This document shows positions 878 to 26,720 of a stretch of 26,722 nucleotides of DNA, piece after piece. The translations under genes were made by a program, and so were the position numbers. The first letter of the stretch is position 1; each line of letters starts with the position of its first letter. Under the pieces are notes generated by a model. That model worked only from the letters and a program-made list of their open reading frames with translations, did not search any database and was not told where the DNA came from. This stretch comes from Armatimonadota bacterium. Its GTDB lineage: Bacteria > Armatimonadota > UBA5829 > DTLH01. The DNA is taken from positions 1 through 26,722 of the forward strand of contig JBBRAE010000033.1 of NCBI GenBank assembly GCA_038207085.1. Direction: 5' to 3'.

Positions 878-1019
878 GGGGAAATAAGGGGACTGAGCCC
901 TTTGTTAAGCCTTTCGCGGTCGGCCTCTTCAACTACCGATCGCGCTACTCTTAGCATGGCAGCAGTATACAATCTGCTGGATATTTTGCCAATAAAGGGC
1001 TCAGTCCCTTTATTTCCCC
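878..1019 (-). mobile_element. Mini-RAYT / REP-flanked non-autonomous element, copy 1
   Basis: Terminal inverted repeats AATAAGGGGACTGAGCCCTTT...AAAGGGCTCAGTCCCTTTATT. Near-identical reverse complement of 26582-26720. The interior encodes MLRVARSVVE fused out of frame to RGRPRKA*. Confidence 0.75.
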
Positions 1020-1028
1020 TTTATTTCC

Positions 1029-1199
1029 GACATCCAGAGCGCGAACAATACCCTGGGGACAGGCGAGTATCCGCTTGTGAAGTACTCCTATGACTCCTTT
1101 GGTCGGAAAGACAAGGTTACCACTTACTCGTCTGCCTCTGAGACGGCGGCACGTGAGACCAAGTACGCCTACGACAAGGCGAACCGGGATAAAAGGTGA
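1029..1199 (+). pseudogene. Rhs/YD-repeat protein fragment
   Basis: Frame reads DIQSANNTLGTGEYPLVKYSYDSFGRKDKVTTYSSASETAARETKYAYDKANR, with two YxYD-xx-(G/N)R motifs. No start codon; bounded on both sides by palindromic repeats. Confidence 0.7.
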
Positions 1200-1211
1200 C
1201 AGGCACCTTTT
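1191..1211. repeat. REP-like palindrome
   Basis: AAAAGGTG-ACAGG-CACCTTTT inverted repeat directly after the YD fragment. Confidence 0.65.
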
Positions 1212-1571
1212 GCATTAGGGCGCGCTGTTGGCTCTTGGATCGCGGAGGGGCGGAAGCTTTGACACGTGACGCTAAAGCATCACTATCGCGGCTCTAATAT
1301 ATACTGAATTCTTTGAGATTCCGTGGCTGTCTCTGACACGGTCTTGGTATGCTTCGGGACAGGTTTTTCGTCCCGAAGCCGCCGGGTGTAATGTGCGTCC
1401 GCCTGGTTGGTCTGTTGGTCTTGTTTGAATCGCAATTTGCGCGAAATGGTGGAGATTGGGGAGGTGGACGGCGGGTCGCAGACCCGCAAAGACAGGCCCG
1501 GGATTTCAAATCCCGAACCATCAAGGCTGCGCCAGAAAAGAAATAGGACAACAGTCCCGCCATAGTCTGAG

Positions 1572-10977: not shown

Positions 10978-11013
10978 GTACCCGGTCGCGACGCAGATTC
11001 GAACAATCCGCGC

Positions 11014-11070
11014 CACGGTGATGGAGTCCGCCGCATAACCGCCCGGACGGGATGATGACTCCTACGTTGG
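11014..11070 (+). ncRNA. Fluoride riboswitch (crcB motif)
   Basis: GGTGATGGAGTCCGCC...AACCGC...TGATGACTCCTAC matches the crcB-motif consensus and lies directly upstream of crcB. Confidence 0.92.
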
Positions 11071-11096
11071 ATTTTTTACGTCGGAGGTATCGTCTT

Positions 11097-13637: not shown

Positions 13638-13716
13638 TAGCCCGCTTTATTCGTGAAGCGAATAAAGCTCTTGCTAAGAGAGCATCATTCACGCTTCTCG
13701 TGAATAATGCGGGATA
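13638..13716. repeat. REP doublet (REPIN/BIME-like), copy 1
   Basis: Two hairpins, GCTTTATTCG-TGAAG-CGAATAAAGC and GCATCATTCACG-CTTCT-CGTGAATAATGC; inverted copy at 22556-22636. Confidence 0.8.
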
Positions 13717-13776
13717 GTAGTCTTTGCAGTAGACTGTTGACGCAATCAAACCTACTGTTAAGAAGGGGTGTTGACG

Positions 13777-19564: not shown

Positions 19565-19648
19565 TTTCGGCAGCCTGGCAACCATAGGATTCTCCCGTAG
19601 GCCCGTTGGCTTTGCGTCCCCGCCTTTCGACGGGTTTGCCATTTATCG
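19565..19648 (-). ncRNA. Cyclic-di-GMP-I (GEMM) riboswitch
   Basis: Minus strand GGCAAACCCGTC-GAAA-GGCGGGGACGCAAAGCCAACGGGCCTAC...ATGGTTGCCAGGCTGCCGAA matches the GEMM-I consensus. Confidence 0.9.
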
Positions 19649-19770
19649 TTGTAGTTGGTTCTTACAATAGAGTTATGCCTCGTATGGAAGAGTTGCTGAG
19701 CTGGGAGTAATGCGGGAATTTGTTGGGGAGTGCACGGCAGATATTTTCGGCTCACGGGAACAATCACCAA

Positions 19771-22338: not shown

Positions 22339-22555
22339 CAAGCGACAACAAGATGCTTCGGTCCAAGACTACTGGGCCGAAGCATCTGGTATGTTCACTT
22401 GTTACTTTGCACTTTCGACTCGAAACACATCCACCTCGTGCCCGCCAGAAGTCGCCTGGTAGGGAGCGATCCACTGCCGTGCCATCTCCTGAAACTCGGG
22501 TGCGAGGCTTCGTAGAATTCTCTACTCAAGCCACAATATTCAGGTTAATCCGACA

Positions 22556-22636
22556 CTAGCCTGCATTATTCACGAGGAGCGTGAATAATGCTTTGCTAGC
22601 GAGAGCTTTATTCGCTTCACGAATAAAGCGGGCTAG
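22556..22636. repeat. REP doublet (REPIN/BIME-like), copy 2
   Basis: Reverse complement of 13638-13716 with few differences; its end overlaps the lpdA stop codon. Confidence 0.8.
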
Positions 22637-25180: not shown

Positions 25181-25255
25181 GGGCCCATAGCTCAGCGGTA
25201 GAGCGGGCGGCTCATAACCGCTTGGTCCCTGGTTCGAATCCGGGTGGGCCCACCA
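25181..25255 (+). tRNA. tRNA with CAT anticodon, most likely tRNA-Ile2 (lysidine)
   Basis: GGGCCCA acceptor stem, AGCTCAG D-arm, CTCATAA anticodon loop, GGTTCGAATCC T-arm and encoded CCA. Resembles ileX-type tRNAs rather than initiator Met. Confidence 0.93.
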
Positions 25256-25739
25256 TCAACTAGAGGAAACCTTTTTTCTATGCAAATCGACCCTGCCGGA
25301 CTTCCGGCGGGGTTCTCGCGCATTTACGAGAGGGAATCTGGCTCTTATCGGGTGTTATCGGCAGTCTATCTTGTGGCCGAGGTTTGCCCTGAGAACCCAC
25401 ATTGGGGGACATTTTCTCTCTGTTTGGCGGGTTTTCTCTGAATCTTGTGGTCGAAGGGCAAGTTCGACCACAAGACCACCAGCGACTGATCTCGTCGGGC
25501 CAAGCTTATGTGCTCGCCAGACTGGAGGCTCGTATGGATCGGCGTTCTGTCGAGTGATAGGGTGCGACTGCGGGAACTCAGTCCGGTGATAAGCGTAAGA
25601 CTTATCGAAACCGGCGTTCCCGCAGAATGCAAACCCTGGGTTTTTCGTCGTTTTGAGCGTGGAGTTCGTGCTCAGCAGGATAAGAACGGTCACTTGCCGA
25701 ACACTGTAGTGACGGCGGATGTTGCATTGTTTTTGGAGT

Positions 25740-25760
25740 AAAAAGGGCTCCGTCCCCTTT
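25740..25760 (+). repeat. Solo REP end of the mini-RAYT family
   Basis: AAAGGGCTCCGTCCCCTTT versus AAAGGGCTCAGTCCCCTTA at the element ends. Confidence 0.7.
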
Positions 25761-25766
25761 CTCCCT

Positions 25767-26033
25767 CAGAAGATGCTCGACCAGGCAAAGAGGACTTATA
25801 AGGAATGTTTGAAGGATGCCGGTAAGGATGCACAAGCTTGCTTCGACAAGTGCGATCTGATGGCTTGGGTTCCGGGGTTTGCACCTCTTGGATATGCTGC
25901 CTGTTATGAAGGGTGTTCCTACGCCTTCACATACAGGTGGAATGTATGCACCAACTCGTGGAACAAGAGCATGAAGAACGCCGACGAGTGGCTCGACTGG
26001 TGTCTGAAGAAATGCAAGAAAAAGAAGAGGTAA
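25767..26033 (+). pseudogene. N-terminally truncated Cys-rich helical-hairpin domain; candidate orphan Rhs toxin tip
   Basis: Begins right after the REP with no RBS; has 8 Cys, six of them mirror-symmetric; tightly followed by a small membrane gene. Confidence 0.5.
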
Positions 26034-26037
26034 GCCG

Positions 26038-26511
26038 ATGGATTCAAGAGTTCTCTACCCACCTAGAGATTTTATGCCAACATCAGCAGTATGGGGTTTC
26101 TGGGTTGCAGCGTGGATGGCTTCAAGGAACTGGGCAATGATGGGGCAGCAAACACGTGGCCGTCGGCTGCTATTCACCGCAGTTGTCGCCCAGATGGTCC
26201 TCTGGTTGTTGTTTATCACTGGTATACACCTCGCCTGCTCGATCTTCGGAGGTGCTTCCGGTGAGGTGATCTGGACATGGCCCCCAATTGCTACAAGAAT
26301 GCTAATAGCAGGCTTGATGATGATTGTCAATGGGGCAGTTGGCTATGGGTTGTACAGGAGTCAGTCGGAAGCAGTATCGGCTTGGACATCAACTCAACCC
26401 ACGCCATCGGTATCCAGCCCTTATGTTTCATGGCAGTTCTCAATAATGGTCATCTCTGCCACTTTGATAATCGCTCTTGTCTTCTTGGCTTTGGTATTGA
26501 GTGTCCGTTAG
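26038..26511 (+). CDS. Multi-pass membrane protein; candidate immunity protein
   Basis: 3-4 hydrophobic segments; GAGG RBS overlapping the end of the upstream ORF; AT-richer than the core genes. Confidence 0.65.
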   Translation: MDSRVLYPPRDFMPTSAVWGFWVAAWMASRNWAMMGQQTRGRRLLFTAVVAQMVLWLLFITGIHLACSIFGGASGEVIWTWPPIATRMLIAGLMMIVNGAVGYGLYRSQSEAVSAWTSTQPTPSVSSPYVSWQFSIMVISATLIIALVFLALVLSVR

Positions 26512-26581: not shown

Positions 26582-26720
26582 GGGGAATAAAGGGACTGAG
26601 CCCTTTATTGGCAAAAGATCCAGCAGATTGTATACTGCTGCCATGCTAAGAGTAGCGCGATCGGTAGTTGAAGAGGCCGACCGCGAAAGGCTTAACAAAG
26701 GGCTCAGTCCCCTTATTTTC
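26582..26720 (+). mobile_element. Mini-RAYT / REP-flanked non-autonomous element, copy 2
   Basis: Same TIRs as copy 1. TTGGCA-N17-TATACT promoter; ATG at 26643 (MLRVARSVVE); RGRPRKA* at 26672-26695. Confidence 0.75.

Follow-up and report, generated by a model that had tools for sequence, protein, structure and literature searches.

The stretch of DNA analyzed here (the window, 26,722 nucleotides) is the entire contig C33 of an 83-contig genome assembly (G000), and it holds two copies of a miniature element that is well supported, on sequence comparison, as an internal-deletion derivative of a full-length Y1/HUH transposase element, since the same TIRs, promoter, ATG spacing, and coding ends are found in full genes of related genomes. 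Judged by these relatives, the parent type is a TIRtron (TIRYT) and not a classical RAYT with GTAG-type REPs, and the miniature is a new family within this known kind. We consider it probable, at roughly 70%, that the miniature was itself copied in trans by a cognate Y1 enzyme that would cut between C and W and produce no target duplication. TIRtrons have hardly been followed up since they were named in 2013, and the G000 set combines a marked miniature, eight copies in sub-lineages, a second miniature family, and a likely parent in the same sample.

The two window copies lie in inverted orientation and are 98.5% identical over 137 nt (26582-26718 and 882-1018), in agreement with a sequence-only reading of this DNA that had described an inverted, near-identical pair of about 140 bp. 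That reading saw one internal mismatch, which lies at 26617; a further difference falls in a G/A run at the outer left end. The 26582 copy reaches to 3 nt from the contig end, and its right flank is off the contig. The TIRs (26586-26609 and 26694-26717) are 24 nt long and 92% complementary, and the entire miniature folds through its ends (z -5.6). Two promoter-like sites were found, compared with a mean of 0.2 in shuffled sequences. The promoter, its spacing to the ATG, and the N- and C-terminal peptides in different frames were all present as originally described (Table 1). The miniature carries only short read-through frames, and no Rfam family matched over either window copy.

Table 1. Coordinates of the miniature element, its parts, and solo TIRs in the window.
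Feature	Position	Strand	Basis or remark
Complete miniature element, at contig end	26582..26720	+	Sequence comparison; length 138 bp
Second window copy of the miniature	879..1018	-	Sequence comparison
Left TIR	26582..26609	+	26586-26609 folds on itself, perfect 9-bp stem and 6-nt loop, z -3.3
Predicted sigma-70-like promoter TTGGCA-N17-TATACT, inward-pointing	26608..26636	+	Spacing as in full elements
Leaderless ATG and transposase codons 1-10 (MLRVARSVVE)	26643..26672	+	ATG 6 nt after the -10
Putative deletion junction	26670..26674	+	About 600 nt of the gene gone; 2-3 nt overlap (GA/AGA) possible
Last 7 transposase codons and stop (RGRPRKA-stop)	26672..26695	+	Stop at 26693-26695; frame differs from start
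Right TIR	26694..26720	+	Forms a weaker hairpin than the left TIR
Stutter: outer left TIR partly repeated in tandem	1019..1029	-	Adjoins the second window copy
Second-family solo TIR (GGGGACAGACACC type)	1191..1213	+	Motif search of G000
Solo TIR, related GGGGACGGAGCCC type	25742..25765	-	End of one-sided composite repeat

BLAST of the assembly returned eight near-complete copies of the miniature, not just the two in the window (two each on C33 and C30 and one each on C40, C22, C8, and C2; 93-100% identity), together with three 3' fragments (C9, C49, and C56) and several solo ends. The internal junction is identical in all eight, which differ at 0 to 13 positions and whose 300-nt flanks have no matches to one another. 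Both C33 copies and those on C40 and C22 are 0 to 2 nt apart and carry TTGGCA; the -35 reads as the consensus TTGACA in four of the eight copies, and the peptide MPKVVRSVVE replaces MLRVARSVVE in two. By eye, each of the four possible combinations at two variant sites is represented among the copies on C8, C2, and C30 (C30a and C30b), which points to sequence exchange between copies or to a repeated mutation. Contig depth summed over the element was 241 versus 13-15, a figure not taken as copy number. The two-ended miniature pattern was found in 1 of 401 genomes of the phylum, which is G000 itself, and in none of the other genomes searched, and a DNA search of 60 relatives gave TIR-sized matches only.

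Full-length counterparts are present in three genomes of the same order as G000 (G018, G023, and G019). The G018 element, found via a weak match, consists of a TIR, TTGACA, TATAAT, an ATG six bases on, 220 codons beginning with MPRVARAVVDG and ending with RGRGRPRKQ-stop, and an inverted TIR; the layout is as in G018 in the other two, all three proteins start with MPRVAR and end with RG-RP-R(K/R)x-stop, and 728 nt separate the TIR cores of full elements. A Y1/HUH protein of this type was detected at E 1e-20 or better in 35 of the 401 phylum genomes, G000 being absent from these, and the named relatives of the transposase among the matches listed are from Armatimonadota. Thirty full-element loci were considered, of which 22 were parsed for HMM and motifs and 20 for TIRs, with the non-parsing rest left out: an inverted repeat surrounds the gene in all but one of the 20, and the H-x-H and Y-x-x-x-NP motifs, seen as HVH and YVERNP in the relatives, occur in 21/22 and 22/22 loci, respectively. 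Two tested relatives scored 62.6 and 58 bits on Y1_Tnp (PF01797, cut-off 23). TIRs of the GGGGACGGAGCCC type, 16-19 nt long, enclose the full genes of G018, G019, G023, and G308, and the TIR of the miniature differs from these by one base, a T for G in the core that is present at both miniature ends.

Both coding ends can be followed into these genes. The first 10 codons match G018, G023, and G019 at 7/10, 6/10, and 7/10 residues (22, 19, and 23 of 30 nt), and for each genome none of 500 shuffles aligned as well as the inner 5' part of the miniature. Anchored at the stop, the tail is identical at 7/8, 5/8, and 7/8 positions, stop included; in free local alignment to the three closest genes, the 3' remnant of 22 nt gave no significant score by itself, a stretch of this length being too short to score. 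Of the 193,969 six-frame stops in G000, nine have before them a 6-of-7 match with a full-length relative's tail, and because eight of these nine are miniature copies, the RGRPRKA tail match is not due to chance. The earlier proposal that the unit derives by internal deletion from a RAYT-like Y1 element thus gained full-length counterparts in G018, G023, and G019; a full-length Y1_Tnp gene with the same ends, expected in that proposal, exists in these same-order relatives and was not found in the assembly.

Searches of the G000 assembly for the cognate parent by Pfam, tblastn, six-frame HMM, and tblastn of contig ends did not find it and returned only other RAYT types and the second miniature family. 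The HMM also hit C32 and C35 weakly at their ends, and these two hits were rejected as an antisense frame of another IS-like gene. The intact RAYTs of G000, on C5, C18, and C23, belong to different types and do not carry the miniature's ends. The C5 and C23 proteins score 103 and 100 bits on NF047646 (cut-off 80) and the end-sharing relatives fall below it (73.9 and 68); no Group 2/3 RAYT flanked by the miniature's repeats was found. A first pattern scan of public genome contigs yielded 0 loci and a second yielded 10; two of these (L038 and L043) are full elements, and 5 of the other 8 were examined and are chance matches. Metagenome contigs gave two loci, both chance, viral contigs gave none, and plasmids yielded nothing at E 1e-40. 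The best 120 of 1697 protein hits include neither the parent protein nor any protein that ends in PRKA. A 739-nt contig of sequencing run X1 deserves mention, as its terminal 83 letters match window positions 926-1008 with 7 differences, spanning the left TIR, the promoter, and ten codons and running to two bases past codon 10, which is the junction, whereas the other 656 letters are unlike the miniature. Its depth is 18.5, compared with 12-15 for long single-copy contigs, and no joint or second piece for its 3' end was present among the matches listed. This contig is a likely parent, which assembly or binning would have dropped from G000, although its source could be a different organism.

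The insertion sites suggest an untidy process. The flank at window position 878 continues into different, element-free sequence in contigs of X1, X2, and X3; by eye, a GC hairpin is completed in this allele and T residues come next, and thus the element at 879 appears to have arrived within a terminator-like hairpin. The other half of the site was absent both from the sequence beyond the element and from the rest of the assembly, so the event would not be a clean insertion and apparently marks a replacement point. Comparison with empty sites, as the sequence-only reading had suggested, therefore supplied an element-free allele and not a clean pre-insertion site, and among five same-family genomes none covers this flank. 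No regular target duplication was seen when flanks were inspected by eye (two copies have one flank missing), and TA on both sides of the element occurs only for C22. Tandem partial repeats, or stutter, mark 4 of the 23 listed outer ends and also C40, and relatives show the same. For the 20 ends that finish in a C-run (three ends were left out), the next base is T in 11, A in 8, and G in 1, that is, T or A at 19/20 ends versus 56% expected with a background of 44% G (nominal p 2e-4, post hoc, with some ends non-independent), and this T or A could be the element's own and not the target's. TnpA-REP enzymes have been described to cut between C and T and, for one of them, also between C and A (PMC8266576). 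The resemblance of the boundary to such cuts is a lead, not proof.

The ends themselves had been likened to REPs. They are instead self-complementary TIRs of the TIRtron type, and GTAG occurs at the outer edge of only four ends (C7, C22, C40, and C72) among the 23 listed and the flanks examined. Two further boundaries were observed. The left flank of the C30 copy at 1045-1086 (L024) is an 8-nt inverted copy of the element interior that lengthens the terminal hairpin, as if a nicked end had been extended by fold-back synthesis. In the window, the flank at 855-887 has an 8-9 nt inverted match to the outer TIR end with which it can pair (z -3.0), possibly a single case of target choice by complementarity.

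Mobility is seen for the parent type as well. Six relatives with several genes were compared, and duplicates with element-sized boundaries were present in three: full TIRtrons are duplicated in G039 (91% over 790 nt) and G308 (95.8% over 760 nt), and G007 has two contig-end halves of a full TIRtron that are 99% alike, whereas the element pairs of G092, G104, and G389 are only 65-70% alike. In print, 6.3% of Group 1 RAYTs are recent duplicates and 1.2% are on plasmids, and of the true RAYT groups Group 1 alone has plasmid-borne members (PMC5581495). The premise that RAYT genes are immobile, which had made the unit seem striking, does not fit this group. With duplicates both in print and in relatives, the surprise of a mobile RAYT fades. 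In addition, the G023 locus C1:4741650-4743060 (L125) comprises a TIRtron, a tandem partial duplicate (TIR, promoter, and 139 codons), and a solo TIR.

The following course of events is proposed. In a first, well-supported step, an element of about 730 bp (TIR, promoter, leaderless 220-aa Y1/HUH gene, TIR) lost approximately 600 internal bases once, probably at a microhomology of 2-3 nt and with both ends kept intact. The shortened unit itself would then have been copied to new sites, as its distribution supports, giving at least eight copies in sub-lineages, through the presumed action of the cognate transposase in trans on single-stranded DNA; this enzyme may bind the hairpin-forming TIRs and nick just outside them, between C and T or C and A. 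Strand transfer would be imprecise and without regular target duplication, leaving stuttered or one-sided ends and adjacent deletion or replacement. Patches would later have been swapped between copies by recombination or gene conversion, and the kept promoter and codons are most likely passengers. Among the points against this course, the mosaic variants show recombination to be at work on the copies too. Spread of the miniature is favored because eight copies share one junction within unrelated flanks and four sites differ by 0 to 2 nt. Accordingly, the view that the unit has itself been copied holds for its multiplication as a unit, and copying in trans is what we infer as the means; no published experimental demonstration of TIRYT transposition was found in the literature searched. 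The end signatures (stutter, a C-T or C-A boundary, and no regular duplication) predict the cut site of the enzyme.

Alternatively, full-length TIRtrons may have spread first and been shortened in place, either because the same hotspot was deleted repeatedly or because one deleted copy converted the others, such that the miniature had no mobility of its own. Duplication of full elements is seen in relatives, the mosaic copies reflect real sequence exchange between copies, and a short microhomology at the junction is possible. However, no full-length or differently deleted copy of the family is left in the assembly, one junction occurs in 8/8 copies, and four of them are 0-2 nt apart across the whole unit, and we regard this history as unlikely. 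An ordinary MITE moved by a DDE transposase, or a classical REPIN moved by another RAYT of G000, is highly improbable: G000 does have intact RAYTs on C5, C23, and C18 and many other repeats, but these genes are not flanked by the miniature's ends, there is no constant target duplication, GTAG is confined to four ends, and the TIR matches the ends of TIRYT genes, with the part of this explanation that concerns origin already largely refuted. A collapsed or mis-joined repeat could be suspected in a fragmented, 83-contig assembly in which several copies lie at contig ends, yet copy-specific variants of the assembly recur in independently assembled contigs of X1, and run X2, from another study, contains 882-963, spanning the junction, with 0 differences. 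X1 may be the source sample of G000 and hence not independent, whereas X2 is independent, and the probability of an artefact is negligible.

Another explanation casts the TIRs as working sites at which a domesticated transposase recombines and shuffles accessory and Rhs toxin-immunity cassettes, with miniatures as scars or portable promoters whose spread is a by-product. The TIRYT would then be a loose single-strand recombinase that cuts between C and W by hairpin TIRs and truncates, captures, and reshuffles Rhs toxin-immunity and further accessory cassettes, and the miniature would be a portable expression or recombination site, its intact outward-reading promoter and leaderless start serving cassette borders. 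Gene fragments do directly adjoin TIRs at several sites: the YD-like remnant at 1020-1196 has a different TIR type on each side (RHS_repeat E 0.009, short of the cut-off), an RHS_repeat match on C17 is about 130 nt from a second-family TIR, and in G023 (the one complete genome, 8.2 Mb, three Rhs cores) an Rhs gene and its small partner are followed, at 40 nt, by a TIRtron; one interior sequence bears different TIR types on C7 and C72, and the copy at 879 marks a replacement point. No Rhs core was found in G000, where tblastn with the C66 Rhs protein gave no match beyond its own contig, and the fragments beside TIRs at 25761-26030, on C30, and on C2 have no above-cut-off family and no longer homolog, that on C30 matching nameless protein clusters only. 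Moreover, no listed Rhs core shares a contig with a listed transposase gene in the fragmented genomes G018, G019, G007, and G308, and other copies adjoin a tRNA-Ala gene, an IMP-dehydrogenase-like gene, or PEP-CTERM-like genes (the latter two named from translations). The miniature's ATG was not found fused in frame to a neighboring gene at any G000 copy, variable regions gather mobile DNA of every kind, and nothing relevant to a TIRYT-Rhs link was present in the literature searched. We consider this role doubtful, with only a small chance of being correct, and copying of the miniature in trans remains the preferred reading.

Shrinking of TIRtrons appears, from comparison of repeats, to be recurrent, given a second miniature family and plain TIR doublets elsewhere. 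The second miniature (C41:20035-20195 and C43:10050-10210) has GGGGACAGACACC-type TIRs, TTGACA, TATACT, and 24 codons beginning MPRTARVVIE, and besides these two copies its family includes a short doublet on C28 and about a dozen solo ends. In G019 and G035 (L082, L083, L088, L096, L099, L104, and L107) there are plain TIR doublets, 45-65 nt in length, whose spacers vary; G035, which is 60% complete, had no TIRYT hit at E 1e-20. The sequences at C7:119034-119200 and C72:5697-5860 share an interior of about 160 nt that is bounded by first-family TIRs on C7 and second-family TIRs on C72, which may reflect TIR swap or capture.

Several other repeats and genes were noted in the window and its genome. 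A composite repeat of about 130 nt (window 25632-25765, C21, C30, and C72, and in part C43; 94-96% identical) has a TIRtron-type TIR at one end and a GTTCCCGCAG-type motif at the other. The inverted pair CTGCGGGAAC ... GTTCCCGCAG, which we take to be reminiscent of the replication-origin end of IS91-like elements, is located at window 25568-25625 and 11 other G000 places with a mostly copy-specific spacer of 37-39 nt; the motif totals 12 pairs and 58 singles in G000, and the pair truncates the miniature on C9, C49, and C56 and adjoins it on C40. Between the left TIR of the 879 copy and the second-family TIR lies a 59-codon YD/Rhs-like remnant (1020-1196; RHS_repeat below cut-off), with a similar case at C17:4931-5117. 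Following the solo TIR at the other end of the window, 25761-26511 contains a Cys-rich 90-residue frame and a 157-aa membrane-like gene, then the miniature; this gene pair looks like an orphan toxin-immunity pair and had no database match. An approximately 80-nt double-hairpin repeat at 13638-13718 and 22555-22635 has well over 100 hits in G000, and a palindromic repeat of 32-36 nt at 1348-1384 is found on at least 7 other contigs. The window also contains a c-di-GMP-I riboswitch (19566-19650, minus strand), a fluoride riboswitch (11008-11071, plus strand), and a tRNA (25181-25252, plus strand).

Units of a tyrosine transposase flanked by TIRs were named TIRtrons by Di Nocera, De Gregorio and Rocco in 2013, with TIRs that are self-complementary, contain a GGGGWSAS motif in some cases, and occur as single, dimeric, and grouped repeats (PMC3733652). 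Our elements resemble these in that the relatives' tyrosine (HUH) transposase gene lies between TIRs and not GTAG REPs, in the G-rich core and self-complementarity of the TIRs, and in the moderate number of dispersed single, paired, and clustered TIRs in G000. They differ in that the miniature core, GGGGACTG on the right and AGGGACTG on the left, is at best one base off GGGGWSAS, which it does not match; the relatives read GGGGACGG, and the second-family TIR GGGGACAG fits exactly. Since the motif was published for some TIRs only, this mismatch does not exclude membership. Quentin et al. (2018) placed most TIRYTs and Bertels' Group 1 in TnpA-Y1 subclass 2.1, which has a C-terminal extension, with a helix-turn-helix in 2.1.2, and all 20 TIRYTs placed in 2.1 have the helix-turn-helix (PMC6006769); in contrast, our 220-aa relatives have no helix-turn-helix domain by Pfam. 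The parent type is probably Bertels' Group 1, an assignment inferred from the TIRs. TIR dimers have been described, none of which, in the portion of that account available, keeps a promoter and both coding ends (PMC3733652). A preprint proposed TnpA-REP-driven diversification of lanthipeptide genes, a causal claim that was later withdrawn (10.1101/2020.03.09.984088). PATEs are gene-less derivatives of IS200/IS605 (PMC10055086). The two ends of the miniature are inverted copies of each other and not different left and right hairpins as in PATEs, and its parent is not an IS200/IS605 TnpA, as on NF033573 the relatives reach 32 and 29.5 bits, below the cut-off of 55.

By the definition quoted in PMC3733652, MITEs are 70-300 bp long, non-coding, bounded by TIRs of 15-30 bp, and cut from an autonomous element. 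The miniature has 138 bp, 24-nt TIRs, eight copies, and no coding capacity. DDE MITEs have a regular target duplication, which the miniature lacks. REPINs were reportedly described by Bertels and Rainey in 2011, with Group 2/3 RAYTs. Like them, the miniature is a non-autonomous unit of two inverted hairpin-forming repeats, of a kind whose movement is attributed to a Y1 transposase acting in trans (PMC5581495). In contrast to REPINs, it has no conserved GTAG foot and eight copies instead of tens to hundreds, its spacer is a recognizable piece of a transposase gene, and its parent type itself duplicates; the early distinction of this unit from classical REPIN doublets was therefore sound, as it lacks the GTAG foot and derives from a TIRtron. 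In sum, the comparison suggests that the miniature functions like a REPIN or a MITE and is by membership a TIRtron derivative, not a REPIN, and what is known of classical RAYTs is unchanged by it.
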